A DNA stretch of 64,000 bases, from NCBI GenBank assembly GCA_051362555.1, contig CM120646.1, forward strand, positions 1,426,001 to 1,490,000, given 5' to 3'. Positions 10,834 through 61,817 of the stretch are shown here, piece after piece. Numbering within the stretch: the stretch's first letter is position 1; every line of letters begins with the position of its first letter. Both the position numbers and the translations under genes were made by a program. The DNA comes from Lingula anatina (lineage: Eukaryota > Animalia > Brachiopoda). The notes below the pieces were generated by a model. That model saw only the letters and a program-made list of their open reading frames with translations. It was not told the DNA's origin and did not search any database.

Positions 10834-13094
10834 ATTGCTCAATGTTGTACATTAATAAGGCGAATATAGGCCCGACCACTTCAAACATGTGCAATTTTGA
10901 TTGTAATAGTCTCGACTCTGTACTTGCCGGGTGGTGTGGGAGTGGTGCGTTCCCCAGTAAGTAAAACGCTTTTTGATTTTAATAAATCTTGAATAAAAAG
11001 GCAATTTTTAAAATAAATGAATAAAACATCATGATGAATATAATGAAGTAAGAGGGTAGCGTAAGATAAATGTAATGTAGATATTCCGTAAATGAGTGAA
11101 ATGTTTGTGGTATTACCTGTAATCGTTGTTATTCTAACTCTCTTAGATCGAAAATACAGGCAAGAAAAATAGCAACCTCATTTCAAGGAGTGATGAAGGT
11201 TTATATAATAATTCATCACAGGTGAGCGTTTTAATATCTAAACTAATAATAAGAATAACAACCAATTTGTAGTGTTAAGATGATATGTTCCATTTAACTA
11301 AATGCTATTACTAGTATAGGTTCATACCAGTTTCGGACCAAAAACCATAAGTTGTATTCTTTGTTTGTAGCATCTACCACTACCGAATCAACATCCACCG
11401 ACACTACCACTGAGACTACGACCACCGATTCTACCACCACTGTGCCTACCACCACTGAGACTACGACCACCGATTCTACCACCACTGAGCCTACCACCAC
11501 TGAGACTACAACCACCGATTCTACCACCACTGAGACTACCACCACTGAGACTACAACCACCGATTCTACCACCACTGAGACTACAACCACTGAGACTACA
11601 ACCACCGATTCTACCACCACTGAGCCTACCACCACTGAGACTACAACCACCGATTCTACCACCACTGAGCCTACCACCACTGAGACTACAACCACTGAGA
11701 CTACAACCACCGATTCTACCACCACTGATCCTACCACAACTCAGACTACGACCACCGAGGCTACCACCACCGCCTCCACTACATGTGAGTCTTAACTCTT
11801 TTAAAGAAAGTAGTAAAATGTTTGAAAGTGTTGTATTGCATGCATTATTCAATGATACACAACACTTTGTGCATTCATCACTTTACAGTTGTACGTCGAC
11901 AGGAAACTCGAACTGCATTGTGGGGAAAAAAAGAGCGTGAACTCTTGGCGCGAAGGCTCTTGAACACAAAATAATAACTACCTGCAGTGTTTCAAGTTGC
12001 AGAAATGATAGAAGGTATCGAGAAAGGTAATTTCCTGTTAATTTTACAACTGCCAAGTTCAATCAATATGTCAATTCTCAATTTATTTATTTATTGTAAT
12101 TTATGTCGCGTCTCTCAATCATGGACCAGAGTGTGTGATCGTCGAGGTTATTATCCATTATTCGAATACTCGCTGTTTTTGTTTTGCTCTATTTTTTCCC
12201 CACAATGCAATTTTCAAGTAAGTATCTGTAAAGTGGCGAATGTTAATAAAAATTTACAGTAATGACTATGGCAATAAAAGCACTTTAAAACCACAGGTGC
12301 ATGTATAATGCGGTAGGTTATTCTTTCAACTGACAATTCAAAACAAAACTTAGTTACCGGTAGAATCCCTTGGTCTTTTTGTCTTGAAATTACTAATGTT
12401 GAACTTTGATGCATGTTTGATGATAATGCCATAAAATTTAATTGTAAGGCTACATTTAATTGGCTTTTAAACCTTACCAGCTTATCATTCGCTTTAACTA
12501 ATACTGCAGTAAGATATTTACTTGTTATAACGTGGCGATACTGCTTATGTTCAGCGCACCGTGTACATTTCCATGAGGTTTTTTTTACTTTATAACGCAC
12601 TATTTATCACTGCAACTTTCGTGTTTCTGTTCTTCAGTTAGGCATAATCTTTTTAGTTACTGTATTTATAAACTTACAGTGAAAACATATTTTATATATT
12701 CATGTAAGGTTTAATTATTTTGGAAATCCGTGTTCTATTTTATTGTATTATTATTATTATTTTGAAATTACAATTATGCAGCTTCAAGGCATGTCATTTA
12801 TATATGAGACAAAATACAAAGGAATGCAGAGTGATCCGTCTTCATTTTGTTACAGTGTCCCCATCTATCTGCTCCTCGACTGCTAGCCTGGTAAAAGTCA
12901 GTTCAGTCACGGTGGCAGAGTATTTTGTCAGAGTGAATCCCTGCACAGCTTTGTGCAGCAGTACATATTCTACTGGCTTGCAATTAGAAAAAAACAAGAT
13001 GCACAAATGTTCTATTTTCTGCTGTTTTGCTCAATGTATAGATGCAGTCACCTTTTTGCAAATAATTCAAGGACAGAAAACATTCATTTTTTAG
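10834..13094 (+). pseudogene. 5'-truncated, internally deleted copy of the mucin/defensin-like gene (exon remnants 10834-10956, 11371-11784, 12856-13094)
   Basis: Alignable to 37172-41040. Lacks the ~7.6 kb (29245-36895 in unit 2) with promoter and exons 1-2; 38-nt deletion removes CxC of domain 1; 28-nt microexon acceptor deleted; ~265-nt deletion removes GCC/CxC of domain 2. Confidence 0.75.
11371..11784 (+). repeat. Coding 15-bp minisatellite (Thr-rich mucin repeat), copy 1
   Basis: Units such as GAGACTACAACCACC / GATTCTACCACCACT / GAGCCTACCACCACT. Confidence 0.95.
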
Positions 13095-13296
13095 TGTTTT
13101 GCATTGATATTTTATTTTTTGTCAACTATAATTAATTTACCGCGTTTTATTAGTACGCTGGCGGTACTCATGGTTTTAGTTCCGACCCGTCTTTTACGGT
13201 TCCGCCGTTACCGCTTCCTAGCCCCCAAGGACCTGTGTCCCCATCTCTTGGATTTAGGTCACATATAATCTCAACTTGAACCCCCTGTTTATATAT

Positions 13297-13335
<39 letters not shown>

Positions 13336-14825
13336 TTTTATTTTATTATTTTTTTTGGGGGGGGTTACACTCGTTGAAAGCACCCTTGTCAATTTTTTTG
13401 AGAATCAAATGCTAAATATCCCCCAAACCGAGAGGATTATGGGAAAAGTTACTAGAAGTCTGACGGAAAGTCTTATGTAAAGATTCCAAAATGCCCTTGG
13501 ATTTGATTTTTGACCTTTCTAAAAATGGGGATTTTCTGCAAAAAATGTTTGTTTGTGTCGATTATCAGAAACTACACAGACCTAACCTATAATATTAGTT
13601 AAATTTGTTACCCTAAGGGTATTCTTTTATATCCGTGTGTTTGGGGTCGATAGGTGCATTTTCACGGGAGAAACGACCGTTATATGCCGAAACTGAAAAC
13701 TCTCTCTCTAATTCTGGAACCGTTAATGTTAGAGATCTCTTGTTTTTCTTCTTTCTTTCTTTTTTTATTCATTTCATAGAGCTTGTCAAGCCCAACACGG
13801 AAGGTGGTGGCTATTTTATTCAATTGACCTTTGACCTTCTTTTCATGATGAACAGCAATTTTTCTTTCCTTTATACACTGTATCTACAAAACTGGATGAG
13901 ATGCGCCCGTGGTTACTATTGAACTTGGAAAGGAAGTCCTCACCCACCGTTTTATTCCGATATGAGTTGGCATGAATGGAATAAGGGGCAAATACCTAGA
14001 CTTTGAATACTTATGGATTTTCGGAATTATTTTTTTCAGGGCAGTTGCACTCTGATTAACTGATGAGATAAGAAGAAAAATTGACTGAAGTCGAAATTCC
14101 AATCAACAGTTATTTGCCGCTGACGGCAGACTGTTTCAGAGTAACAATACAAATGTAAATAAAAATACTAATTCTCGATATAAATTATAATCTCCGGGTC
14201 CATGACTTGTATAAACGGAGGAGAGGAACGAAAAATGTTTTTCATCATGTTGATAAAACGATCCATGTCCAGTTACTGAAAACACGTTCCTTTATAATCA
14301 TGAAGTTTATGATATGAAAACAAGCACAAACAGGGTGCACCGTTTCTATTGTCTATATACAAATTACGTGAGGCTTTTATTGGTCAAGTTTGAACGGACA
14401 CTATATACTGCTAGCACACTGGAAATGATAAAATTATTTTACGGTACGTTAAGTACCAATACATGTTAACCGACACACCAAGTGACGCTGGATTTATATC
14501 TTTAAATACATTGGACTAATGTGATATTTAAACCAGAAAAACTAGACATTTCTGCCATATGTCTTGAAAAGAAGCGATACATAAGTCAAATCATTTCACT
14601 CGGCAATACCAAAGTAACGGAAGTTGAAGGTGTGATATTTAAGGCGCAACATGTACCCGCTACTGCATAAATCCACTATACCTTTACACTGTAGTACAGT
14701 GTAGTAAAGCACTATACAATACAATACAATGCAATGCAAAACAATGCAATACAATACAATAATGTTGATAAAGCAGTCAAAACGACCATAACCTATTTTA
14801 ATTTGCTAAGAATCTCTTGTCAAAT

Positions 14826-17800
14826 CTATGGAGCAGTAGTGCGTGCAGTCATTATACATTGTGCTAGTAGGCTTGTGCCCCTCCTACTGAGGTGAAATCC
14901 ATCTTCCCTGTAGTAATCTGGGGAGCTTATCACCTCATTTACTGTGATGAAATGTGCTTTCTGATGGCCTGTGAATTCAGCCTCAACAGTGTCATTGTAC
15001 CGCTTTGCTCTCTCGTTGAAACTCTGGTTTTGTTGCCGATTCAGGATCCCCGTGAAATATATATCACAGTCAGGATATTTCATTCCTGCTGTCTCTCGCA
15101 GCTGGTGAAGCTCTGAGACGGTGTCTGCAACACTTTGGTGATCAATGCTGTTTGATCCTACAATGAAAGTCAAAGATTCTGGATTTCCCAGGTTTGATTT
15201 GATTATATAGTCGTGCGCGTCTGCAACAGTTTCATCTCTCAGTACTTTCACGTAGGATCTGCCCATCCTGTTGCCATCAAGGTCCTCTCCTATTGAGTCA
15301 GTCACTATGACATGCTTCCTTTGCATTGTGTTCTGTGTAGTGTATGGTATTTGGGGACTGTCCACCTTTCTTCTCGCTGCCGTCCCACGCTGGTCATTGC
15401 AAGCTGAGTGAGTTGTCCGTTTTGATTTTTCTTCGACTTTATCTTTCAAGGCGATTTTCAATAACCCCTTTCCAACTTCTTTTATTAGTTTAAAGGGACT
15501 GTTTGAGTCTTTTCGACAAAAGGCATCTACTGCTCCCCCGACTGCCCCCAAGACATTGTCTGAGTCATTTTCTGACGAGTCGATCAGTATATCTCTCATG
15601 TCTTTAAGCAAACCTCCTGGACCTTCACCCTCTGGTGATCTTGCCCGCGCCTGCTGTGTTTGACGCTCCTTCAGAATATCTCCAAAAGGGATTTTGGTCA
15701 AGTCAAGCACAGGACCCCAAGACGAACCAAAGCAATACGTTGCTTGGATTTCGTCGAGGATTGGTTTTGGATTGTGGCGGATTTCATGTAAAAGGTTAAC
15801 GTTTTCACTGACTAATTGTTCATCCATGTAATCTATCATGTTGTTTTCCGGTATGAAATAGTTTGGGATGCACTTCTTGGAGAGAAAATCAATCAAAAGG
15901 TCGAGAAAATCGTAAAAACGTTGCCCCAGCCTTTCTTCTGTCCAGTTGTCCTGTGGAATGCGCTCACATAACCAGAATAACGTTGTCTTAAGGTGGTAGG
16001 TAGAAAGGACGCCAAGGTTCCCCAGTCGGTGTTTGTGTATCAGTTTTATAATACGGTAAACATGGCGCTGAGCTTGATTTAACGACAAGGCAAGATGACG
16101 CTCTGCCAAAACAAAAGAGATCCTCCATTCGGTTCGGCAACCTTTATCACCAGGATTGGCAACTGGAACAAGATGACATCCAACTTCTGTCACGGCTCTG
16201 ACTTGCTCCGTACTAGGCCAACCGCTCGATCTCTTGCGACTAAGCCATTCGTCTGCTTCATGGGGAAACTTCTTCCAAGGCAACGATACAACCATATCGC
16301 AACTATAAACGTTGCTTTTGATACCAAAAATAGTGGGCAGTGTGAGTGATAACGCAGGACCATTAAAACTAATACAAAATGTTGTTAAAAGTTTTCCAAA
16401 CTCTGATATCTGGTTTTGGATCCAAAATTGCATGGATTTGTTGCTCAGATATTCATCCCCGGTTTGATCACGTTCCAAAATGCCTGGCACACGAAGCCAA
16501 TGCTGTTCGCCCTGGAACTTAAGTTTGACATAACCGGGATGACAGCCATGACCATCCACGAGCAACGCTGCCTCTGTTGTTGTCACTTGCTCTCTATGAG
16601 ACGTGACTGCCGGAAGAAATGGCGGCATGAGCACTAGCATGGCATCCATATCTGCTATTTCAAGTAGAACTTTAGGCTTCCAGTCATACAAATATGGGAT
16701 CCCAAGGCCGTCAACACAGCTACCCAGAAGCTTAAACCGAATGCTTTTGAGCACAAACGCAACCTCATCTTTCATCTCTGGAAAGAGACCCCCTAACTTG
16801 AGCATTATATTGTGGAATGCCTGTTCGGAATGTTCATAAGGCATATATTTATAAGGTCCGATGTTTGAAAACAGCATGTCAACAAAAACTGTCCACATAA
16901 GTGCAAGTTGTCCATTTTCTGATGTTTTATCTCCACCAATGGATCTGATAATTGCATCCTTGAGAATTTTACACATCTCTTTGCTTTTCTTTTCATCACG
17001 ACCTAAATCAATCCCAAATAGTTTTTTAATTATTACCTGCTCACTTGTTTGAGGTATCATCTCTGCTAAGTATTTTGAGAATTTTTCCATATCTTCATTA
17101 TTTTCAACGTTTCGTCTCGGTCGTCGTTCACACAGAGGATATCTAAAATTGAAAGTAAACATAAATAAAAAGGTATATATGTAAACTGACCCAGTTAAAA
17201 AAGCTTTATAAAAAGTTCCATGGAAGGACTTACCCTTGAAATAAACGTAGAATGGAGCCTCCATGGTAAATATGTCTGTGAATTTAGATGTTTATGTCTT
17301 TTTTTTTTTTTTTTTTGTTCAAAAATTTGAAAATTGTTTAAGAAAGGTCATCTACCGGGTAACTTTCATACCGGTACATTCCGTCAATTATCACGGACAA
17401 TAGAAAAGTCTAAAACATTAAAATATGGCGGTTTTTCGTTTATATCCACAATTCTTTCTGCTCATACACCTGTACGATCAGTAGATCCCGAGGTACGCTG
17501 ATGTACGTGGTCCCTGAAAACTCCCCTTCTTCTACCACTTTGCCGCAATCGTTCTTGGTCTGTCTTTCCAGTGGCCTATGAAATTCGAGACTGCATTTCC
17601 ATAAGCCCACTTGAGTAACTAAGGGGTAATTGGCTATCGTTAATCACCCACTAGCAGCTTCAGTAGGCGTGCCAGACAATTAAGCCTCTTACACTGAATG
17701 CAATTTAGCTAAACCCCTGCAAAGTTAATCGATTCAGATAGCACGATTGGTTTATGAGAACCTCCTTTAACCTCTGTAGAGGACACTGAAGATATAGGTA

Positions 17801-18021
17801 GGGCGCGGTGATTGTTTTTCACATTTTTAACCATTTCAATTAACGGAGGGTGAAGTACCTTTACCATTTTTTTAAACACTTTGCTGTTCCGAGGCCGATC
17901 ATTATTTCACCTGGGCTTTCGTCCCAAAAAGGTACTCGTCTAAATTTCCATAAATGTAACATGTACAATATACATAGTAAATACTTTCATAAGCTTACCT
18001 GTTATCTCTCCTTTTATCCAT
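14826..18021 (-). CDS. cGAS-like receptor (cGLR/Mab-21 NTase) with C-terminal SGNH-like domain, copy A; exons 18021-17999 and 17142-14826, ~779 aa
   Basis: 812-aa ORF containing GS(CVDGL)...ADMD...CDMV catalytic triad, WPS..VGCHLVP, EWRISF, STYHLKTTLFWLCE, CIPNYFIPENNM (Mab-21/cGAS motifs). Polypyrimidine+AG acceptor precedes 17142 (phase 2); 23-nt exon caccATGGATAAAAGGAGAGATAACAG|gtaagc (MDKRRDNR) joins in frame. C-terminus has TDS / GSN / DGFH SGNH blocks. Confidence 0.9.
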
Positions 18022-24030: not shown

Positions 24031-27000
24031 ATGGCGAGCTCCCATTTTTCAACTTTAGCAACTGATACAGAAAGGCAGTTTATAGGCAAGATGCAAGACC
24101 CAGAAGTCTACGGCAGGCTGTTAGATTGTCTGGATAAAATCTGCAATCGTCTGAAAACCCAGGAAACAAGCAAAGAAGATGTACTTTTATTGTCCAATTC
24201 TCTTGCAAATATGTGGGAAGTAATGAAAAAAGAAACAACAGAGTATGGCAACGGAAACGTATCTATTGAAACCATGATAAGCAGCATTCAGATGGAAGTG
24301 GGGCAGAGAAGCACACTGGATGATGACAGCTGTGATGAAGAGACTGCAACATGGAAAGAAGTGAGAGAGGAGAGCAATGATGTTATGATCAGCGCTGTTG
24401 CTGACAAATCTCTATCCAGAAGATGAGATGTCGAAATTCCCTGGTGCCGAGATGTTGCAGCTCCCCGATGGAGGCAACGATGATGTGGTCAGTGATGTTT
24501 CTGACAAAGTAAAATGTCCCGAAGTTGAGATTTTATAACCCTCATGACCAGTGGTGATACTTATGTATTAAAATCCCCGGATACAGGTATGTTGCCTAGC
24601 TACTGCGCGTTTCCTCCAGTGATGCCGAATTGTTGAAGTCCAGTGAGGCAGATTTTTTAATTACTTGTTTTTCAAACAATCGTTATTTTGGTCAGAGGTC
24701 GGAGGGGGGGGAAATGTTTTTCAAAAAATTGACTTTTTGGTCACTCATTTTCAAAACTATATTAGACAATGGAAAATAGAGGGTTTAAACACAGTATAAC
24801 AATTTTTGGATAAAAACAGCAATTCCTTGTCAATGTTTTATTTATCTAAATAAATGTCAATTCTACGAATCAGTCTTGTAAATTACAAAACAATAAAAAG
24901 CACAGTTTGCATTTCTATGCACTCATGATGACAGTGCACAAAACAGTTTTTTGTCAATATTGATGTAGCATTATGTAGGATTTAATGATTGAGTGGAAAA
25001 TCATCAGCAAAATTAAATCATCTACTTCATGTAACAAGGCCATCCAGAAACAATATGGCTTCATGCCCATGTGAGTTCCAAGTCCCACAGAGAAAGCACC
25101 AATGCATGTATGTAAAAATTGAACATTTCACAAAAACAGCATTACTTCCATAAAAAGAATCTAATCAGGCTATATTTCAGACCTTTGAATCTTTCAGTAA
25201 GTTTGAAAATCATCTTGTTAAATGGCCTTCCTAAAATGGTAACTATGGCAGCTGCACTAATCTAGCCAGTCTTTCTCTGCATATGGGCTTCTATACCACG
25301 TACAGCTCTACTGTCAGTGTCTTTGCTATGCGTTTTCCAAGATTTTTGGCCTGCCCAGCCCAAAAACCAACATTGAAGTCTTTCACTACTTGCGAGATGG
25401 AATTATACATTGTCTGCCTTGCATTACTTGGGGATTCACTGAAAAAAATCAGATAAGTTAACAGAGTTGAGTGTGTGCCTTCTGTTATAGCTGCATAGGA
25501 ATTGTAGAAGTCAAAAGCCAGCAAACAATTGCTTAGCCAGATTGTTAGAAATACAAAAACCAGCAAGGGAAGTTTGGCGCCACAGTTTGAAATGTGTGCA
25601 CTATTTGTGTGGAATTATAACTTTAATGTAGATTCTTCTGGCGCACACATAATGTTTATATCATCTATCAACATAATTCAATGTTTATTAATAATACGCT
25701 TTATTTTTTTTTATTAATGGGACTTCCAATAAAAGCGGCCATCATCGGCCAAAATTCAAACATCACACTTGAGTTTGTTCCATTCTTTTAAAGGACGGAT
25801 CCTATTTCTTACATCGGCTTAGATCAAGGAGACATAAAGGGTAATATGGCCTGTTATGGAACCGTGGTCTTAATTTTCATTAATCTAAATGGCAGCAACA
25901 ACTTAATTTATTTGATAAAAAAAAGGTTCATTAACAAAATAATAAAAGATAAAACTGAACTGCCAGGTCACAGGTCCATAGCCAAGGAGTTTTGAATGAT
26001 TTGAACGAACCACCCTTTTTATCAGGAAAAGGTCTGCTCTGGGTGAAAATTGAACTAGGTGCATAAAGGTTTTATGGTAAATGGTCCACTTTTTTCAGAA
26101 AAAAAAACATATTTTGAAATTGCTGGCTACGGGCCTGGTTAACCTTAATATCTAAATACGCATTAAAAACTTGGTGGAAAACTGTACTATGAATTCATGA
26201 GTCGATATGGTTTACATCAAGGTTCAAGGCAAATAGGAAAAATGCAGCAAATGCCAACATTTGCCTAGGAGATGTTCTTATAAAACTATCAAGTTCTGTA
26301 AAAGATCTGGGAGTTACCCTCGATGAAAGAAATGGGGAAGCGTGTATCTGAAGTGTGTAAATCAGCATCTTATGCACTATGGCGCATTGGAAAAATAAGG
26401 AAAGTGTTAGATAACAAAACGACTGAAAAATTAGTACATGCATTTATATCATCAAAATTAGATTACTGCAATAGTCCCCTCTTTGGTATTTGTGACCATC
26501 AGATTAAAAAGTTACAAGTTATTCAAAACTCAGCTGCAAGACTGGCTTGTCAAATAAAGCGCAATAGTACACACCTTATCACTCCCATTCTGAAAGAATT
26601 ACAGGTACACTGGTTGCCTGTGAATCAGAGGATTATTTTAAAGTACTTTGTATTATTTTTTAGGCGATCCATTCACAAGGACCATTATATTTATCTGATC
26701 TTATCTGTTGTAACTTCTCTCAAGTTATACTGTTTGAAACTACATGAATATGCTGGCATTAGGTCGGCTTTTCTTGCAAAAATTTATTTCATATGCATCT
26801 TTAAAGGCCTTTGCTTTATTTTAGGAAAAGACAAAAGTTGTAATGAAAACATCAAGGAATCGGTAATGGGTCTGCCTTGTTATGATGTTTAAAAGTTAAG
26901 GCGATATAGATTTTTGTTATACTCTGACCCCTACTTAATTATTAAGTCCCCATGCACATCCCTGATGATGGGTATACTAATCACCATAGTTTCAACTTCC

Positions 27001-37829: not shown

Positions 37830-40800
37830 TAAATGGTTTTTAAATAAAATCGTAATCATACATTCATAAAAAGTGAATAATTAAAAACCTTGGAAAACAT
37901 AAAACTTGCTTATTTAATTATTTAACAATTTAATTGAAGACATTACGATAACTAGCGCGGAGATATACCGGATTTGTTTCAGTGTTGTATTGCCTTATTC
38001 TTTCAGTGTACAGACGGCACAGCAACTACAACAGGTGGGCGTTTTCATATCTTAACTAATAATAAGAATATATAACAACCAAATTGTAATGTTAAGATGA
38101 TATTTTCCCTTTACCTAAGTGCTATTACTAGTATAGGTTCATACGAGTTTCGGACCAAAAATCATAACTGGTGTTCTTTGTTTATAGCATCTACCAATAC
38201 CGAATCAACATCCACCGACACTACCACTGAGTCAACCACCGCCGATCCTACCACCACTGTGCCTACCACCACTGAGACTACAACCACCGATTCTACCACC
38301 ACTGAGCCTACCACCACTGAGACTACAACCACCGATTCTACCACCACTGAGCCTACCACCACTGAGACTACAACCACCGATTCTACCACCACTGAGCCTA
38401 CCACCACTGAGCCTACCACCACTGAGCTTACCACCACTGAGCCTACCACCACTGAGACTACCACCACTGAGCCTACCACCACCGATTCTACCACCACTGA
38501 GCCTACCACCACTGAGACTACCACCACCGATTCTACCACCACTGAGCCTACCACTGAGACTACAACCACCGATTCTACCACCACTGAGCCTACCACCACT
38601 GAGACTACAACCACTGAGCCTACCACCACTGAGCCTACCACCACTGAGACTACCACCACCGAGGCAACCACCACCGCCCCCACTACATGTGAGTCTTAAC
38701 TCTTTTAAAGAAATTTAAGAGTTGTAAAATGCTTGAAAGTGTTGTATTGCATACATTTTTCAATGATACACAACACTTTGTGCATGTTTTAACATTAAAA
38801 TAAAAATTTACAGGAATTACTATGGTAATTAAAGCACTTTAAAACCACAGGTACATGTATAATGCGGCAGCTTATTCTTTCAACTGACAATTCAAAACAA
38901 AATTTAGTTGGAATCCCTTGGTCTTTTTGTCTTGAAATTACTAATGTTGAACTTTGATACATGTTTGATGTTAATGCCATAAAATTTAATTGTAAGGATA
39001 CATTTGCCTTTTAATTCTCACCAGCTTGCAATTCGCTTTAACTCTTACTGCAGTAAAGCCTCGGTCACAAGCGGCCGTACGGGCTCTTACGGGCTGTTTG
39101 CGTCCAAATTTTGCGCAGAATCTCACGTCCCACGCAAGTACTTCTTAAGAAATTTGGAGTTCGCAGACAGCCCGTAAGCATTTACGGAGGATGTTGGACA
39201 TGTCCAAAAGATTCTACGGATAGCCTGCGAACGGCGAGGCCGCAAGCGTAACTTGCTCCCCTTGCACGGAGTTAGCAAGAGAGACGCGCGTTGTGCAAGA
39301 CGCACGTCGCAAGCAATGAAAGAGCAAGTGCCCTTTGCGTGTTGAGTAAAGCCTAGGTCCCAACTACGTTTTGGACGCACGGTTTTTTAGTTCCTTGCGT
39401 CCGGCTAGGACGTAGCTAGATTGAACGTAGCGGCTGTTGATCATGTCGAAAAAATACTACGTGCTGTTTGCATCCTCCAAAAGTCGTACGATGGACGTGC
39501 TCCTCACGCACGAACTCCCAAGTTTTCCCCATTTATTTGGCCGTAGACCACACGTAGCAGCCCGTACGTTCGGTTGAGACCTAGGTTTAAGGCGCACGCC
39601 CTCACAACTAACGAACAAAGTCGAGAGCACACCGGAAATGCGTCGCACGTGCGTCACCCCCACTCCTGGTGTATAAAAGGCGTGCTCACGACGCACGCTC
39701 GTTTCTTTACAATGAACGTCGACTGTGTAAAGTGTACAACAATTTTCAAAATTTTCAAATTTTTTCTCAATATAGTTTCTAATATGCCTTCAAAAGGCAA
39801 TAGAAAGAAGCTAACATAGTAGGAAAAAAGGGAGGAGGAAGAAGAAAAAAGAGGAGAACAGGAAGCAAAACTGACGTACGCCGTCAGTACGTCACCACAA
39901 ACGTGTGAGGCAAGTGTGAAGCAAAACTGACGCAAAAGGGCACTACTTTCGCCGTGCGTTGTATTCCCTTCTTAAGTGGTGAGTCTTTGTCACGTACACA
40001 GGAAGCAATACCAACTCAAGAAATGAGTACAATTTCCACGGCCATCGCTCCTTGCATTTAGCGTCCCTGCTTGAAAGGACATCTCATGTGGCCCTTGCGA
40101 CTCGCAAGGCAGACTTTCCTCTACCTCTACGACCTCCACTGCCTCCGCAACACCCAAAAATCGCAGGGGACGTACGATTCTGAAATTCGTGCTTCCGGTT
40201 GTGACCAAGATAACATCGTTATATTTGTTATTACGTGGCGATGCTGATGATGTTCAGCGTACCGTGTACATTACCATGGGGTATTTTTACTTTATGACGA
40301 ACTATTTATCACTCCAACTTTTGTTTTTCTGTTCTTCAGCTAGGCATAATCTTTTTAATTACTGTACATATAAACTTACACTGAAAACATATTTTATATA
40401 TTCATGTAAGATTTAAGTATTTTGGTTGAAAATCCGTGTTCTCTTTTCTTGAAATTACAAATATGGAGCCTTAATGCATGTCATTTATATATAAGACAAA
40501 AGACAAAGGAATGCAGAATGATCCGTCTTCATTTTGTTACAGTGTCGCCATCTATCTGCTCCTCGACTGCTAGCGTGGTTAAAGTCAGTTCAGGCACGGT
40601 GGCAGAGTATAATGTCAGAGTGAATCCCTGCACAGCTTTGTGCAGCAGTGCATATTCTACTGGCTTTTGGTCCACTGCAAAGACATACAGAGGTTGCTGT
40701 GGTAACAACAAATGTTACTGCACTTTAACCACCGTTCTTTACTCGGTAAGTTATTTAACCTCTATCATTAACATTTAAAATCAAATGTGGTAGTAAAGGG

Positions 40801-41900: not shown

Positions 41901-44015
41901 TGAACTTGGATAGGAAGTCCTCACCTATCGTTTTATTTCAAAATGAGATGGTATGAATGGAATATGGGGCATCTACCTAGACTCTGAATACTTATGGATT
42001 TTCGGAATTATTTTTTTCAGAGCAGTTGCACCCTGATTAACTGATGAGATGAGAAGAAAAATTGAATGAAGTCGAAGAAAGACATTTGCTGAGTGCTGCT
42101 TTGCTGATAGATTCGGAACTTATAAATTTGATCAACAAGCCAAATGGACAAACTGAATAGACTTAGAGAGTTTCATTTAATTTAGTATATAGGACTCACT
42201 TATTTTATTGAACTTCCTGTTTTAATGTATTCCAAACTCTCTGTTTTCTTTTAGCAAGGATCTGCCCAAATTGAACATCGCTTCCACTTCTTATATAAAT
42301 AGATAAATACAATTTATAATGGAGTATAGTATAATTATAATGGAGTAAAGGTGTGCTAATATGTAAGAAGGGCTATTTCAACAACGGATTAAACATTTAT
42401 GGATTTTAGTTGTATATCGAACATTGAGCTATAATTAAAAAAATACTAATAAGTGATCTGTTATTTTGTGTTAATAGCCATCTTCGTAGCTTTTTTCTGT
42501 TTATTGCCTTTGTTTGTGAAACTTAATGCTGCAGAGGGTTTTGATTTGCCTGATGTTTTCCAAAATTTTAATTCCATTTGAATATACACCAAACCAAATG
42601 ATTATCATGGGAGATGATTATCATGGGAGACCTAAATCTAGATTTCCTCAAACCAAAGAACATTCCCATCTAATGGAACCAAATCATAAATGCTCTGAAC
42701 ATGAAGCAAATGATAAACCAAAATAAGGATTAATGGCAGTTCGCCCACTTTAAATGATCATATGTATGTCACAAATCCAGCACATATCAGAGCAACGAAA
42801 GTGCCACTTATCAGTATGTCCGACCACTTCCCAAATGCGTTGTGAACCGTCCAAAATGACATTCACTTTAATTTATAACTGTACTGAATTTCAGTGTATC
42901 AATTTCCATTAACGAATTAACTAATCTATGGGCTCCGACATGACTCCAGATTCGACTCAGTCTTTCACTTTACGTGCAAAGAGAAGCATAACAGTACAAC
43001 CTTACATCTTCAGTCTCAAGTCTAAAAGTGTCTTTATTATGTACAACATTCAAATTTTATACAGACTATCTACAGGGAATCTACGCGTACAAGTGGCTGC
43101 TACTTATTTACATACTAATTGTTGTGCAATATTAACAGCTGATATGCATCTGTCTCAGGCATAGGCCTACCTATGGGCCTCTACAGAAAATAATATTTAT
43201 GTATGCAGTACAGACGCAAACTAGATAAAAACATGTTGACTATTATGATTATACTATGTGGAATTGGTGCAGAATTCCACACGCCATCGCCTCTTTATAA
43301 AAAATAATGGTACATTATTTTAAAAATTACATCAACGTGAACAATAAATGTCCCGGGAATATAAAAAACATTTTCCTTAAACTCAATCATGTCATCTAAA
43401 CAGTTATGCCAAATTTTAATTTGTGATGCTTTATCCGTATGTATAAATGTATCCTTTGAACAAATTTTACATTTTTATCAGAGTTAAAATTTTATCATAT
43501 TCCTATCACATACCGTTACTACAACAATAATAATTACTATGAAATTAACTCCTAATTTCACCTAATTTCATAGTTCAAAAATTAATATAGGAGATTTTTT
43601 CTTTAAGAGATATTTTATCAAAAAAAATATATATGCACCAATACATGTTAACTGACACACAAAGTGACGCTGGATTTATATCTTTAAATACATTGGACTA
43701 ATGTGATATTTAAACCAGAAAAGCTTAAAATTGCTGCCATTCATTCTGTCTTGAAAAGAAGTGATACATAATTCAACTCATTTCACTCGGCAAGAACAAA
43801 GTAACGGAAGTTGTAGGTGTGATGTGGCACAACAAGTACCGTCTACTGCATAAATCCACTATATCTTTACACTACAGTGCAGCAAAGCATACTACAATAC
43901 GATACAATACAATACAATACAATACAATACAATACTGGGGCTAAAACGGTCAAAATGATCATGATCTCTTTTAATTTGCTAAGAATCTCTTGTCTAGTCT
44001 ATCCTGCTTTAAAAT

Positions 44016-47000
44016 TTATGGACGGTGGGTAGGAAATGGCGGTGGATCAGTAGTGCGCGAAGCCATTATGCACTGTGCTAGTAGGCTTGTGCCCCTCCTA
44101 CTGAGGTGAAATCCATCTTCCCTGTAGTGATCTGGGGAGTTAATTACCTCATTCACTGCGATGAAATGTGCTTTCTGATGACCTCTGAGTTCTGCCTCAA
44201 CAGTGTCATTGTACCGCTTTGCTCTCCTGTTAAAACTTTGATTATGTTGACGATCCAGGATCCCTGTGAAATATATTTCACAGTCTGGATATTTCATTTC
44301 TGCTGTTTCTCGCAGCTGGTGTAGCTCTGAGACGGTGTCTGCAACACTTTGGTGATCAATGCTGTTTGTCCCCACAATAAAAGTCAAAGATTCTGGATTT
44401 CCCAGGTTTGATTTGATTATATAGTCATGTGCGTCTGCAATAGTGTTTTCTCTCAGTACTTTCACGTAGAATCTGCCCATCCTGTTGCCATCAAGGTACT
44501 TTCCTATTGAGTCAGTCACTATGACATGCTTCCTTTGTGTTGTGGCCTGTGTAATGTTTGGTGTTTGGGGACTTTCCACCTTTCCTCTTGCTGACGTCCC
44601 ACGCTGGTCATTGCATGCTGAATGAATTGTCCGTTTTGATTTTTCTTCGACTTTATCTTTCAAGGCGATTTTCAGTAACCCCTTTCCAACTTCCTTTATT
44701 AGGTTAAAGGGACTGTCCGAGTCGTTCCGTGAAAAGGCGTCTGCCGCTCCCCCTATTGCCCCCATGGCACTGTCTGAGTCATTTTCCGACGAGTCGATCA
44801 GTATCTCTTTCATGGCCCTAAGCAAGCCTCCTGGGCCTTTACCCTCTGGTGATCCTGCACGCACCTTCTGTGTTTGAAGCTCCTTCAAAATATCCCCAAA
44901 AGGAGTTTTTGACATTAAGTAAAGCACAGGATCAAAATGGAGATCATACGTTTCTTGGATTTCTACGAGGATTGCTTTTGGATTGTGGTGGATTTCATGT
45001 AAAAGGTAAACGTTTTCACTGACTAATTGTTCATCCATGTAATCTATCATGTTGTTTTCCGGTATGAAATAATTGGGGATGCACTTCTTGGATAGAAATC
45101 TAAGCAAGAGATCGAGAAAGTCGTAAAAACGTTGTCCCAGCCTTTCATCCGTCCAGCTGTCCTGCGGAATGCGCTCACACAACCAGAATAACGTTGTCTT
45201 AAGGTGGTAGGTAGAGAGTACGCCGAGGTTCCCCAGTCGGTGTTTATGTATCAGTTTTATAATACGGTAAACATGGCGCTGAGCTTGATTTAACGACAAG
45301 GCAAGATGGCGCTCGGCTTCAGCAAAAGAAATCCTCCATTCAGTTCGGCAATCTCTATCACCAGGATTGGCAACTGGAACAAGATGGCAGCCAAGTTCTT
45401 TCACGGCTCTGACTTGCTCCATTGTAGGCCAACCACTCAATCTCTCACGACTAAGCCATTCATCTGCTTCATGAGGAAACTTCTTCCACGGAAATGACCC
45501 AACGATATCGCCTGTCAGAACAATGTTGCGTTTGACACCAGAAAATATGGGCAACTTGTATGATACCGCAGGACCATTAAAACTTACATTAAGCATTTTC
45601 CAAAGTATTATTAGTTTTTCAAACCCTGGCATCGGATTTTGGACGCAATATTGCATGATTTTGTTGCTCAGATATACATCCCCAGTTTGATCACGTTCCA
45701 AAACGCCTGGCACATCAAACATACGATTTTCGCCCTGGATCTTAAGTTTGACATAGCCGCGATGACAGCCAACGCCATCCACGAGCAACGCTGCCCCTGT
45801 TATTGCCACTTGTTCTCTACGAGACGTGACTGTTGGGAAAATTGGCGGTGTTAGTACTAGCATAACATCTGCATCTGATATTTCCAGGTGGGCTTTATGA
45901 TCCCTTCCAAACAAAATCGGGATCCCAAGACCGTCAAAGAAACTACCTAAAAACTTGTAACGCATGTTTGTGGCTGCGTCTTTCGTCGCTGGATAAAAAT
46001 GCCCACAGAATTTTTGAATTGCATCATTGCCAATCTTTTCCATGTATTCATAAGGGTACTGCTTATAACACATAAGGTTTGTGAGTATAAAGTCACCAAA
46101 ATATTTCCCCATAAGGACAGGAAGTCCATGTTTTGCCGCATTATTTCCACAACTGGTTTTAAGAATTGCATCTTTGAGAAATGTACACATCTTTTTTATT
46201 TTTCTTTCACCTCGAACTGAATGTATCCCAAATAGTTTTCTGATTATCTGATGAATCCATTTCATTGCAAACATCTCCTTTGGTAGCATCTCTGCTAAGT
46301 ATTTTGAGAAGTCTTTCATATCTTCTACCTTTTCATTATTTCGGCTCCTTCGCTTGCTTGAAGGAAATCTAAATTCAAAATAAAAATGTACATTAGAAAA
46401 CATAGGAACGTGTTGTCGTCACTTCGCGTCCGTCCTCTATGTGCCCCAAATCAGACCCCCACAGACACCACATACGAACTCCTATATTCAAATGTCTTAT
46501 CTTATGGACCGTTCCCAGACTTTATCGCAGTAACTGTGGATCGATCTGCCTCCGAGGGGATTCTTGCTTAATTTCAATCAACTAAAGTGGCTTAGATGTC
46601 TGTCACGCCTACTGAAGCTGCCATTTATCAACTTCGGTAGGCGTGCCAGACATCTACTAGTAAGCTGAAAGCAATTTAGCGAGAAACACCTCGAAGGTGG
46701 ATCGATCCTGTTAGATCGATCTAGGTATGGGAACCCAGTCTTAAGGCCACTAATAGTAAAAGGACCAAAGTCATAGAAACAAAGCCCTGGGCTTATAAGT
46801 TTTTATAAAAAATTAAAACAAACTTCCCAAAAGGCCAATTAAAGACGGGGATTAAGTACAGTGTCCAACGGATGACGCTCTGGCGCCAATTTGAGGGGAA
46901 AAATGCCGTTTTCGGTATTGGGATTTTCTCTATAACCAAGACAGCTATTCAAGTGATTCAAAAGGCCTCATAAAGCTGGGTGAAAGCACTACAGCGCGGT

Positions 47001-49374
47001 ACCAGGGAATTGTCTTAAACTATTTACTTTTGATTTTATCATCTTTTACGTTAAATCAGCCCATATTTCAATGGGTTATTCACTTCAAAAGGCGATAACT
47101 TTCAAACAAACAATTTCCTCTTAAGCCCCTGATATCATGCTGTAGTCCACATTCCTAACAACAATAGGTGCAACTTTTGTAACGATCGGTTGCTCAGATA
47201 GTGAGATATACTTGGCAGCGATTCACTTATCTCGTCAATATAGAAAGCTGTTAAAACAGCCAAAAACGTTCACAGGTTGGTTAACAGGGCTTATTAGTCA
47301 AATGCTTAGCTGGCAAATTTACCTGTTATCGGTTATACGATCAGATGGAACCATTGCTTATTGTCATCTAAAAATATTTTGTTTGGGTGCTTTGAAGGGG
47401 CAGAAAATCGTGCTTTTGTTACATTTTCCGACCACTCGTTAGGCATGTAAGCGTGCCGCCATTTTGATTGACAGCTCTGGAGAGGGCCCTAGCCTAGTGA
47501 TGCCCAGTAGGGTGTCAAGGATATGTAGAAGGAAGCGCTAACAAAGGCGATTACGTTTAACCGCAATTAAGAGGTGTGAAGTTGCATTTAAAAGTTTCAA
47601 TGGCTCTTCCTCGGCAAACGAGTAATTTTACCTGAGAGATTCCTTCTTTGTTATCGACAAAGTGATCAGATAAAACTGTCTGTCGAGAGCAAGTGGCCGT
47701 CACTTGTGTTAATAAGAGTTTTTTGACGGGTAACGCTGCAGGATTATTTTGCACGGCACTTGGTAATCGTCAGATCAACGGAAAAATCCAGTGATTACTT
47801 CAGAGCGGTCTCTCTCAAATGCCAGCTAAGATAAAGGGGAGACTCTCAGCTGCACAAGATTCAGCGGTAAAAGTGGCTGAGAGAAGGCTTTTGAATAAAT
47901 ATTTTATTTTTACACACATGACACTTAGACCCTATTTGCTTTTTACCTGCTAGTCTTGACTATTTTCGGTGTCTTTTTGTGATTTTCATTTTTGGATACA
48001 TTTTGAACTCTTTCTTCCCGCTTGATCCGTGATTTTGAAATTGTTTTTCTCCAAACATCGTAAAATGCAAAGCCGCTAACATGTGATTTTATTTTTATTG
48101 TTTTAATCATGCTGTCAACCCTTGCTTGGATTTCTCTCGTTTGGCCATTCACATCACAATTTTTCGCGTGTCTCTCAAGCTCCATGATATCATATCTTGG
48201 AGAATAAAATTTTATTTTGTCAACATTAAGTTTACCTTTTGCAAACGGCGACCAACAATCATTTCCGGTTTCGTAACGTGTCGCAGATACGCTCGCCGAT
48301 ATATATCGCAAAAGTTAAGAGCTAGGCTAAAAGTATCCTTTTTAGCATTTTTTTTAATTTATTTATCGATTTTCCTTTCATTTGTCAATTAATTTAGGTG
48401 ATTCGAACTCTTTCACCCATTTATTAGGTATACAGAAATCAGTTATCCGACTGAACAAATAGGGCCGGTTTTCCCCAACCGCCACGCATAGGCCCTACTC
48501 TCTTTCAAAATTTTCTTTCTTTCCTCTGGAAATGGACTTTTAACACGAACTTTTCTCTTCCCCATAGTATACTAGCTAGACTTCTTCGCTGCTAAGCTGA
48601 TGTAAGACTTATGACCTATTACCGCACACGTAATCGGCTTATAACTCATTAACTGTGCTCCGACCCCCTCATGGCAACGACCCTTAGTAACAGAGGCGTG
48701 GCTTAGTTGTCAGCCTGACTGGGGCGCGTGCCGGTTGAAAAACTCATCAAAAGACACATTTTGCGATGCAAATTCATAAAAGTTATTACATCCAACGTTA
48801 GATACTTTTTTGATTAATATAAACACACAAAAAACTCAAAAACATGATTTTAAGCGTATTTAACCCTATCACCGGCCTTAAAGGGGACGGTCCTGTTCTT
48901 CATTATTAACCGGTACATGCAAATATTTTAAGATTTTAATTACTTCAAATTGCAAATGACCGCTCGTATTATATAATTATGGCAGATAATAAATTGAGTC
49001 GCTTGAACATGCAAGCGACTTAATGAAAATTAATTTATAAGTCTAATGATTATTTCCCGACCTGTGCAATGATATCAAATCAATTTAAACGATTACCTAC
49101 GACAGTGCGGTCACGATTCATGTCCTGTTTTTAAATCATTTTAAACAGCTGAAAACTTTGTTGTTGTTGGGGAAGGGGAAAATATTTCTGTTTAAAGAAA
49201 AGTTATTGAATAAGCTTGGTTTAAAATAAACCATGTATGAAACAATTTAAGCTACCAGTTAACAACTTATGTCAAATTTTCCATGTATTCTTTCATACAT
49301 GATACCGGTTCACGACACGGATAATAATTCATAAAGCAGGCCTAAATGTACCTTTTGTATTCCCTTTTCTCCAT
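44016..49374 (-). CDS. cGAS-like receptor with C-terminal SGNH-like domain, copy B; exons 49374-49352 and 46368-44016, ~791 aa
   Basis: 795-aa ORF with GS(FFDGL)...SDAD...GDIV triad and the same Mab-21 motifs as copy A; acceptor ttttgaatttag before 46368; 23-nt exon accATGGAGAAAAGGGAATACAAAAG|gtacat (MEKREYKR) is homologous to copy A exon 1 and in frame; TDS / GTN / DGFH SGNH blocks. Confidence 0.9.
46503..46744. mobile_element. Palindromic ~240-bp MITE-A; relatives at ~17590-17770, ~50240-50348 and split 50356-50466/53170-53289
   Basis: Arms ..TTCCCAGA..GATCGATC..GCTTAATT / AATTTAGC..GATCGATC..TATGGGAA recur at all listed loci. Confidence 0.6.
46745..48877. mobile_element. Possible Kolobok-like non-autonomous element in cGLR-B intron
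   Basis: TTAA on both flanks; imperfect termini GGCCACTAATAG / rc GGCCGGTGATAG (9 of 12). No recognisable transposase. Confidence 0.4.
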
Positions 49375-59194: not shown

Positions 59195-61817
59195 ATGATG
59201 CATGGGAAACTCTTAGCTCTGATTGCCTTCGTTGGATTTGCTGCCTTCACCAAGGTAATTGGTTGGTGTTTATCCAAATTTTACCATATTCTTTTATACC
59301 ATATCCAGTGTCTCTTGTGAGTCAAACGAATCTTTTTTTTTTTTTATTTTAAACGTTATCGTATAGGTAGTGCACATATTTTTGCAATTACTATTCATTG
59401 TAAAATGAACAAATCAACATATGGTATGAGATACCCTGAACACCTTAAACGACTTTTATCTTCATTATTAACGACTGACATACAGAATTATACAAATAGG
59501 TACTTATATCCCTATATTATCTCATGATAGCAGACTTAGACAATCTAAGGTAAGAACAGGCCTTAGCAGAACAGGTTATTGTTATGAAACCAGGTGATCT
59601 CGTTGATTGTTTTGCCAACGTGTGCCTTTATCCAGAAAATAAAGGTACAGTTTTATTGTAATGTAGAAAAATGAAAAGTTTAATCTTATGACAAGATCAA
59701 CAGACTACACAGATAAGTAAATTACCACCAGTATACACAGTATGCTTCAGATTTCAAACAGATCTCTGGCCCTTAAGAAACAGGTTTATCGGGCAGTTTA
59801 TTATATAAATCAACGCATTTTCATTTTCCCTTGAATCTAGGGCGTGGTGCCCATAGCGGGACAAGGCAGCCCACCTATGGTTTCAAACAACCTCCGAGTC
59901 CCCGTTAACCTTCTCAACTACCTTTTCGGTTTGACTAGTCGCAACAACAACAACGGCAATGGGCAGAGTGGAAGCAGCGGGAATAGTCAAAGCCGTGCCA
60001 GGAGCGTGACTGGCAATACCGCTGTAAGCACAGGGTCGGCAGGAGGAAGCGGCGGCACCGGGCAAAGCGCAGCCATAAGTCGATCTGGCGGAGGTTTCAC
60101 ACAAGGCAGTGCGTCTGGGGGTGCTCAATCTGGCAGCAGGCGACAAAACAACGGGAACGGCGATAATTTCCGTGACAACGGTAACGGGAATGGTTTCCGT
60201 GACAACGGAAATGGCAATGGTTTCCGTGACAACGGAAACGGGAATGGTAATAGTTTTGATAACGGCAACGGGCCGGTACGAGTAAGTGGTGCAAGTAGTC
60301 AAAGTAGAGCAAGTGGAGGGACAACTCGTGTTTCTAGCCCCACTCAGAGCCGGGGTGGTACCAGTGGGAGTAGTTTCCGTGATAACGGTAATGGCAATGG
60401 TTTCCGTGACAACGGCAATGGGAATGGCTTCCGTGACAACGGCAATGGTAATGGCCACGACAATGGTTTTGATAACGGAAACGGGCCTCTACCAGTAGCT
60501 GGCGCAAGCCAAAGTAGAACAAGTGGAGGGACAACTCGTGTTTCTAGTCCCACTCAGAGCCGGGGTGGTACCAGTGGGAGTGGTTTCCGTGACAACGGCA
60601 ATGGCAATGGCTTCCGTGACAACGGCAATGACAATGGCTTCCATGACAACGGAAATGGGAATGGCAACGACAATGGTTTTGATAACGGCAACGGACCTGT
60701 ACGAGTAGGTGTTGCAAGCCAAAGCAGAACAAGTGGAGGGACAACTCGTGTATCCAGCTCCACTCAAAGCCGGGGTGGTACCAGTAGGAGTGGTTTCCGT
60801 GACAACGGCAATGACAATGGCTTTCATGACAACGGAAATGGGAATGGCAACGACAATGGTTTTGATAACGGCAACGGACCTGTACGAGTAAGTGGGACAA
60901 GCCAAAGCAGAACAATTGGAGGGACAACTCGTGTATCCAGCTCCACTCAAAGCCGGGGTGGTACCAGTGGGAGTGGGTTTCGTGACAACGACAATGGAAA
61001 CCATGACAACGGAAATGGAAACCATGACAATGGTAATGGTTTCTTCCACTTCGATAACGACAATGGTAGTTCAGTTTTTTACGAGGCATTCTTGAACTTC
61101 TGTCTCTGTAGCTATGTGCGCCAGTTGTATCCCTGCTCCAACCGACTGCAGTTCCCAGTATTATGTGAGGTAAGCATGACATGGAAAACTACATATATCT
61201 TTGTTTCTTTCTGCGTTGGTGATAAATCAGATTTGTGGAAAACAAAATATGCATAACCCAAGATATCAATTAGAGTAAGCCCCGCCCCCCACCACCACCA
61301 CCTCCAACTGGGGAGACATGTAGCAAGTTATTTTTATATGATGAATATTAAATGATATTATCAAAAAAAAGGAGAAATACATATAGATAAATAAAAAATA
61401 TAAATAATAAATATGTAATATTTATTATGTATTACATATTTATTATGTATTACATGATGCTTTAAGAAATGTTAACACACATATTAATGACAATGAAATA
61501 AATATATATAAATATTTTTTCAAAGATACTTCATATCGATTCCATTCAATTGTAAACATTAAAAAAATGACTCATTTCTTAAATTGTCATGAATATCTGT
61601 GATTATCAAGTAAATTCCTTTGGTGCATAAACGAGGTCACCATAGGTCCTTGATCTGTTACATGAAATATAAAAGGAGCTGGTTAACTTGTGATAAAATC
61701 TTTATTTTTCAGGGTACCGTTGACTGCCCGCCAAGAGGCTACAAATGTGTCGGTCTGCCTTCTATGCTGACTGCCAGAGCGGCCGCAGCCTCGGGTAACG
61801 CGCAGGCTAGGCCCTGA
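59195..61817 (+). CDS. Secreted Asn/Gly/Ser-rich repeat protein with C-terminal 6-Cys domain; exons 59195-59254, 59841-61169, 61713-61817 (~497 aa); candidate biomineral/extracellular matrix protein
   Basis: Exon 1 MMHGKLLALIAFVGFAAFTK (signal peptide) |gtaatt; two phase-0 GT-AG introns; repeats GFRDNGNGN alternating with ASQSRTSGGTTRVSSPTQSRGGTSG; tail CLC..C..C|..C..C. Confidence 0.85.

Follow-up and report, generated by a model that had tools for sequence, protein, structure and literature searches.

How does a gene for a cGAS-like receptor (cGLR) come to end in a hydrolase-like domain, and what could such a domain do for an innate sensor? The question arises from a 64,000-nucleotide stretch of the brachiopod Lingula anatina (NCBI GenBank assembly GCA_051362555.1, contig CM120646.1, positions 1,426,001 to 1,490,000; hereafter the window, in whose coordinates all positions are given), in which two tandem genes on the minus strand, copies A and B, encode a cGLR core followed by a domain of the SGNH-hydrolase type. 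cGLRs are thought to respond to non-nucleic-acid ligands too, and retrotransposons supply nucleic acids that such sensors detect. An earlier inspection of the letters alone (the sequence-only reading) had suggested that an ORF1 esterase domain was captured in frame from a retrotransposon and kept under selection. We favour, at a probability of about 0.42, the reading that the tail of the tandem cGLR was replaced in frame by such a domain, which would now be a putative non-catalytic or weakly catalytic module gating the synthase, a regulatory role being part of that reading.

Both genes lie in open reading frames (ORFs) that run free of breaks from stop to stop, at 14826-17291 for copy A (821 codons) and at 44016-46418 for copy B (800 codons), and a tandem duplication (~1.4-17.2 kb versus 23-46.4 kb of the window) encloses the two. 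Splice acceptors at 17143-17144 (A) and 46369-46370 (B) define exon 2, which spans 14826..17142 in copy A (771 codons plus stop, covering cGLR, helical extension and captured segment) and, with the same architecture as judged from ORF, Pfam and alignment, 44016..46368 in copy B (783 codons); Mab-21, Mab-21_C and the SGNH-fold domain are thus encoded by this single exon in either copy. Pfam places both Mab-21 (43.4 bits) and Mab-21_C (61.4 bits) above cut-off in copy A, and both again in copy B, there barely for Mab-21 (24.4 versus 24.1 bits), while the GDSL/SGNH match at the C-terminal end is weak and below cut-off in each copy, the isolated domain reaching E 2e-4. The uninterrupted exon joining Mab-21/cGAS to SGNH in both copies, as claimed in the sequence-only reading, is hence confirmed by ORFs, splice acceptors, Pfam and AlphaFold2/Foldseek. 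By way of the RefSeq N-terminus, an additional upstream coding micro-exon of 23 nt, MDKRRDN(R), was found in copy A at 17999..18021 on the minus strand (MDKRRDN plus 2 nt, GT donor at 17998); it is matched by the N-termini of the RefSeq proteins P0002 and P0087 and is separated from exon 2 by a phase-2 GT..AG intron of 856 nt (17143..17998). For copy B, a candidate micro-exon 1 at 47323..47354 (minus strand; MVPSDRITDN plus 2 nt) is uncertain, being one of two phase-compatible candidates. The cGAS-like receptor gene is a spliced, tandem pair in Lingula, with copies that are 71% identical.

The cGLR core of copy A (15774..17141), delimited by Pfam, PDB matches and motifs, comprises N-terminal helices, a nucleotidyltransferase (NTase) lobe and the Mab-21_C bundle, and the closest solved structures in a PDB sequence search are Sp-cGLR1 (E 1e-22) and MB21D2. 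The catalytic residues GS, [DE]h[DE] and the third acidic residue read LLGS, DMD and CDM in copy A (motif starts: GS from 16724, DxD at 16652-16644, third Asp near 16295) and FLGS, DAD and GDI in copy B, which agrees with the earlier statement that the NTase motifs are intact. Measured against the literal cGLR motif h[QT]GS X8-20 [DE]h[DE]h X50-90 h[DE]h, the copies have Leu at the Q/T position and spacers of 22 and 113-117; this spacing pattern is not a strict cut, because the orthologue is listed as a cGLR by the authors of the cGLR survey despite equal spacing (22, 116) (PMC9980059). The core has an isoelectric point (pI) of 6.8 in copy A, 9.1 in copy B and 8.0 in the RefSeq orthologue P0002. 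A model of P0002, of low confidence (mean predicted local distance difference test score, pLDDT, of 49), has Sp-cGLR1 as its best Foldseek match (E 5.6e-16, template-modelling (TM) score 0.64 by target). In the full-length AlphaFold model, built on a 6-sequence alignment, residues 492-791 are unreliable and domain packing is not readable. The fusion shares with invertebrate cGLRs (Sp-cGLR1, 8GJY) and human MB21D2 the helical bundle and the Mab-21 NTase lobe, GS, DxD and the third Asp included; its appended domain, an enzyme fold of probable transposon origin, sets it apart from them.

The only close database relatives are the Lingula anatina proteins XP_013388617.1 (LOC106157493) and XP_023933535.1 (LOC112042725), which share the architecture and are 72-79% identical to the window copies; the window accordingly represents another haplotype than RefSeq. 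The sequence-only reading knew of no such architecture among described cGLRs; this does not hold, as XP_013388617.1 appears in Table S1 and is the sole SGNH_hydrolase (CDD) row of Table S2 (residues 659-777) in the survey of Li et al. (2023; PMC9980059). There, it was sample 21 (789 aa, near full length) of a pooled nucleic-acid screen after expression in E. coli; its note cell is empty, and the 15 enzymes selected as active do not include it (PMC9980059). According to the same source, 87% of cGLRs have no added domain, described fusions involve ANK, TPR, death-domain and multi-cGLR arrangements, nucleic-acid-sensing cGLRs have a pI > 8.5 while acidic ones may sense other ligands, and L. anatina is tabulated with 13 cGLR and 2 STING genes (PMC9980059). 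In the main text of this preprint, the words 'hydrolase' and 'Lingula' have 0 occurrences, and the origin, selection and role of the domain are not discussed. A literature search outside subscription journals found nothing on a cGLR with an SGNH or esterase domain, nor did the listed titles on cGAS and STING in Lingula point to one. The architecture is therefore already on record in a supplementary table, and the transposon origin, the junction, the selection and the active-site erosion are new as far as our searches reach.

RNA evidence was drawn for copy A from 7 of 9 same-label runs (X5 and X6 were left out), with 6-30% of each run read. Three reads of run X7 connect 17144 with 18005 across four intervening letters, so that a net 856 nt is skipped, exactly the length predicted for the intron. 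Four of four runs in one set cover the bin containing the capture junction, and no joint is listed within the exon, RNA across this junction being a check proposed in the sequence-only reading; in a second set, exon coverage is low in 3/4 runs and none is seen in X4. All exon reads of run X3 point in one direction, as minus-strand RNA would under the common stranded protocol. At 13153-13938 and at 17516-17783, the latter within the copy A intron, lie short repeats whose high RNA depth stems from divergent copies elsewhere in the transcriptome. An assembly chimera was ruled out by the presence of four copies in two assemblies together with the RNA depth across the junction bin.

The C-terminal domain itself extends over 14844..15314 in copy A, as delimited by relatives, model, Foldseek matches, selection and motifs, and over 44046..44531 in copy B (end approximate; from motifs and alignment). 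AlphaFold2 modelled the last 168 residues from a 36-sequence alignment with a pLDDT of 95.3 and five strands, and Foldseek retrieved SGNH hydrolases as top matches of this model (E 2e-9, TM up to 0.84, the latter to 2HSJ), the closest folds including PAF acetylhydrolase, sialate O-acetylesterase and OatA. The ZfL2-1 ORF1 esterase 4C1B, against which the sequence-only reading had asked for a structural comparison, was matched at E 1.5e-6 with 21% identity, the highest among the matches listed, and the ESM Atlas concurs (score 0.96 to a GDSL cluster). The domain is predicted with high confidence to adopt a flavodoxin-like five-stranded SGNH fold. Chance extension of an ORF was ruled out by the fold together with the ratio of nonsynonymous to synonymous substitution rates (dN/dS) given below.

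Where the domain was joined to the receptor can be read from paralogues lacking it. A search with the cGLR core gave 21 proteins, and the SGNH profile matched 0/20 of the non-fusion ones, including the two closest Lingula paralogues, LOC106157491, which probably lies on the contig of the RefSeq pair (longest contig in either case 203,703 bp), and LOC106165177; no fusion outside Lingula was found in the collections searched. Similarity to LOC106165177 spans the helical extension (15444..15773 in copy A, common to the SGNH-less paralogues; BLASTP to P0087 at E 1e-10, ending at its D610) and stops at 'LKD' near window position 15443. As the two nearest paralogues are without SGNH, we place the capture junction near 15443 in copy A, with its counterpart near 44654 in copy B. 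Beyond it, copy A continues with a basic linker of 43 aa (15315..15443) that aligns with no paralogue and is likely ORF1-derived, whereas the paralogue tails are acidic, with net charges of -15 and -27. On the simplest reading, which we infer from these comparisons, an acidic tail was replaced in one Lingula lineage.

The source of the domain was sought by a word-free search of 1.84 billion representatives, which returned 82 matches; apart from the Lingula fusion, these were 81 sequences of 23-37% identity. Mab-21 was found in 0/81 of the others, and several of them have long low-complexity stretches. Six of the 81, forming one close subfamily, were aligned, and six loci carrying close relatives (L001 to L006) were fetched: 4/6 have an endonuclease/reverse transcriptase ORF2, or its start, downstream of the SGNH ORF, and the other two contigs (L001 and L005) stop inside ORF1. 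In L002, the SGNH ORF is followed by an endonuclease and RVT_1 (E 1.5e-8), and in L003 by Exo_endo_phos_2 (E 2.4e-10). L004 and L006 terminate in an apparent first endonuclease motif, so read from its likeness to L002 and L003. The L002 ORF1 is 36% identical to the fusion domain, and the motif TDSIG is common to both. When 76 domains were placed in a tree, after removal of five duplicate or cluster-mate rows, all four fusion copies grouped as a single clade (100/100). The domain was thus very probably captured from the ORF1 of a retrotransposon without long terminal repeats (non-LTR); an ORF1 origin is well supported by context and sequence, with a domain that appears ORF1-derived yet not itself an ORF1. 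The in-frame capture advanced in the sequence-only reading is supported by the ORF2 context, the identity to L002, the SGNH-less paralogues and the dN/dS; CR1/L2, which it named for this compact form, is a putative donor clade. L002 and L003 may be RTEX-like elements. Esterase-type ORF1 proteins occur in CR1, RTE, RTEX and Penelope-like elements (PMC3905857), with a concordant account for L2, CR1 and RTEX (PMC5408684). Searched by tblastn with the locus ORFs, the window gave matches at its two SGNH domains and nowhere else, with no ORF2 in the same element, and a still-mobile element was ruled out on this ground.

Several features of these elements may be recorded beside the main line. A DnaJ, NADAR or RNase-H1-N domain precedes SGNH in the ORF1-like proteins P0011, P0013, P0043, P0053, P0084, P0085, P0009, P0014 and P0066; the literature yielded nothing on DnaJ with esterase ORF1 of non-LTR elements, and a metagenome scan with P0013 gave no locus. 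In L003, an upstream element ends at ~900-940 in AATAAA and (TTGA)n and abuts the ORF1 region of the next, a tandem arrangement. A fragment upstream of ORF1 in L002 (1-243) has no Pfam match and presumably resembles a DIRS-type RNase H. An ORF of the window at 26302-26892 (plus strand), likewise without Pfam match, contains a motif that presumably resembles the C-terminal part of a CR1/L2-type ORF2.

We then asked whether the captured domain is maintained. Comparison of copies A and B (Nei-Gojobori, 1000 bootstraps) gave a dN/dS of 0.27 for the SGNH domain (confidence interval 0.13-0.53, Fisher P 6e-5), compared with 0.18 for the C-lobe, 0.74 for the NTase lobe, 0.60 for the N-terminus and 0.87, with a wide interval, for the linker. 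A ratio near 1 in the domain, which the sequence-only reading had named as counting against it, was not observed, and the domain is very probably under purifying selection. In the C-terminal half, the window copies group with each other and so do the RefSeq copies, a sign of gene conversion or independent duplication, and what a pairwise dN/dS can show is limited for this reason. It bears on the possibility that the domain is a tolerated passenger without a task, in which selection merely removes misfolding changes: gene conversion within each pair could mimic conservation, and the restriction to Lingula, the low expression and the erosion of the active site would suit such a passenger. Yet a stop before the domain would then cost nothing, and 4/4 copies retain it; a neutral 205-codon segment, simulated with substitutions alone, remains free of stops in 2.7% of runs at the observed dS of 0.20 (13% at 0.10), and the dN/dS lies near that of the C-lobe. 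We consider this explanation unlikely. The sensing half behaves otherwise, as the N-terminal helices are 42% and the NTase lobe 58% identical between the copies, versus 90% for the C-lobe (~16281-17141 versus 45490-46367), with dS values of 0.71 and 0.35 that far exceed the 0.05-0.11 of locally aligned stretches in the flanks, which may reflect diversifying selection there or sequence exchanged between paralogues.

Whether the domain could still be a hydrolase was judged from its active site. The block I Ser and the Asp and His of block V (Asp-x-x-His) are present in 4/4 copies (copy A motif starts: Ser 15296, Asp 14903, His 14894), and the block III Asn (15152) is Asn in both window copies and in 73/74 relative rows but Ile in both RefSeq copies, with the rest of these two genes intact. 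The earlier statement that Ser, Asn, Asp and His are kept thus holds for the window copies and fails at the Asn for the RefSeq orthologues. Loss of the block II Gly, also noted earlier, is seen as Asp or Glu in 4/4 copies, with Gly in 46/74 relative rows and all three verified ORF1s. The change from GDS to TDS in block I is likewise there, although it is no fusion-specific loss, since the Thr is shared by 18/74 relative rows and by the transposon ORF1s of L002 and L003. Judged on these residues, the domain does not appear to be a complete SGNH hydrolase, its oxyanion hole being eroded. A coupled enzyme would require that a slow (de)acylase or lysophospholipase turns over an acylated substrate (a lipid, an O-acetylated glycan or an acylated protein) and thereby triggers or tunes the synthase. 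The retained Ser, Asp and His and the Asn of the window copies speak for it, as do the acetylhydrolase and acetylesterase folds nearest to the model; block II supplies a main-chain nitrogen (PMC10792757), so that a non-Gly residue need not abolish activity, and the ZfL2-1 esterase hydrolyses p-nitrophenyl acetate (PMC3905857). The Ile in both RefSeq orthologues weakens the coupled-deacylase idea, and triad conservation is uninformative because 122/157 (78%) of the domain columns are invariant among the copies anyway, giving a chance of retention of ~0.47. In addition, the positions mapped to H191 and S228 of ZfL2-1, whose double mutation blocks activity (PMC3905857), hold Ile and Thr, though these positions vary among the relatives too. 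A coupled enzyme is therefore rather unlikely in our view.

The domain has also departed from its relatives in charge. Its net charge is -7, -2, -5 and -7 in the four copies, against a median of +5 for the relatives (77 rows, some duplicates, of which only 4 are at -3 or lower), +10 for L002 and +11 for L003; its pI is 5.4-6.5, compared with a median of 9.1, and many Lys and Arg of the nearest ORF1s are missing from it. These values bear on the possibility that the domain, through an ability retained from ORF1p or akin to that of OSK, places the sensor on anionic membranes or RNA. The ZfL2-1 esterase does bind phosphatidic acid, phosphoinositides and liposomes (PMC3905857), and OSK of Oskar is a non-catalytic, RNA-binding SGNH fold (PMC10792757). 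Liposome binding of ZfL2-1 (pI 10.8) is, however, mainly via surface charge and independent of the active site (PMC3905857), which makes an ORF1-like membrane role improbable for an acidic domain. In OSK, as in the Lingula domain, an SGNH fold serves as an accessory domain, but OSK is without the Ser nucleophile (PMC10792757), which the Lingula domain keeps, and the Pfam OSK profile gave no match to the latter at E up to 1; an identity with Oskar OSK was ruled out on these two grounds. Judged on overall charge rather than on local patches, both the ORF1-like membrane role and the Oskar-like RNA role look unlikely, and we give targeting of this kind only a slim chance.

Acidity would be put to another use if the captured esterase were a retrotransposon bait that joins basic ORF1p from active elements in one assembly and brings the synthase their RNA or cDNA. 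This reading is favoured by the origin of the domain in a transposon ORF1; the nearest ORF1 domains are basic where the fusion is acidic, the ZfL2-1 esterase crystallised as a domain-swapped dimer (PMC3905857), and ORF1 co-option has precedents (PMC4161310, PMC12129022). On the other hand, ORF1p multimerises via its coiled coil while the esterase stays a monomer at up to 75 uM (PMC3905857), no coiled coil was captured, and the domain evolves slowly and is distant from all sampled ORF1s, unlike a bait that tracks its target. Such a bait is quite improbable, and it is equally doubtful that the captured esterase would dock the sensor on esterase-type retrotransposon particles, or on their acylated lipids, for a cyclic-dinucleotide alarm.

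We thus return to a non-catalytic or weakly catalytic gating module as the preferred reading. In this scenario, insertion of an element into the long final exon, followed by read-through, would have exchanged the acidic tail of the ancestor for the captured sequence. Which ligand is sensed would depend on the variable N-terminal lobe, and the conserved SGNH domain would have one unvarying task: most probably it would bind the core or a partner, or else pocket an acyl or lipid ligand, so as to restrain synthesis until a non-nucleic-acid cue arrives; output would run via STING, as established cGLR biology has it. The orthologue's lack of an 'active' note in the nucleic-acid screen was counted in favour of this reading.

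A number of observations weigh against it. The blank note could equally fit failed expression, inactivity or unselected activity, and the binding partner and ligand of the SGNH domain are putative only. The Ser-Asp-His triad is retained in all four copies, albeit with the probability by chance given above. Taken together, the basic linker and the acidic domain give the captured segment a net charge close to zero (-1 to +3), which weakens the notion of the domain as an acidic lid. The donor may already have lacked the block II Gly and the basic charge, because 28/74 relative rows are without this Gly and the L006 ORF1 has a net charge of -1. As to descent, the branch leading to the fusion clade is long (0.93), its union with the verified-ORF1 clade has support of only 82/81, and no Lingula donor element was found in the collections searched, which did not include the whole genome of this assembly. 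Expression is low, with a depth over exon 2 of ~1-5x, and the reads cannot be assigned to copy A itself because they are mostly 85-95% identical.

Compared with esterase-type ORF1p (ZfL2-1, 4C1B), the fusion has the same compact SGNH fold with blocks I, III and V, but it is without coiled coil and ORF2, is acidic rather than basic, has lost the block II Gly and is under host selection in an immune gene. L1TD1 (PMC4161310) and Lyosin (PMC12129022), the latter reported to be under purifying selection, likewise represent ORF1 sequence co-opted into host proteins; these vertebrate cases use the RNA-binding ORF1p of L1, whereas the Lingula fusion draws on the esterase class and is constitutively joined to a pattern-recognition enzyme. 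For the esterase class of ORF1p it would be a case of co-option by the host, and a cGLR with a selected retrotransposon domain offers a tractable case of innate sensors gaining new inputs, within the limits of a single genus, low expression and an architecture already visible in a supplementary table.

Some minor features of the window remain to be mentioned. An (ATTGT)n microsatellite lies just 3' of the copy A stop (14714..14761) and another 3' of copy B (43893..43935), and this unit is listed solely behind the two genes among 53 tandem-repeat rows. It is possibly a retrotransposon tail, which is unproven because the 3' untranslated region matched only the other copy. Rfam gave no match on the window, and no Pfam match was obtained for the other ORFs of >=70 aa in 111/146 examined, the 35 left out being mostly repeat, low-complexity or overlapping frames. 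A 471-codon ORF rich in Gly, Asn and Asp (59841-61256, plus strand) consists of 27-nt and ~210-nt repeats and has no Pfam match. Finally, Thr-rich, mucin-like ORFs built of 15-nt repeats occur on the plus strand at 11298-11795 and 38076-38699, one per duplicated unit and convergent with the cGLR genes.

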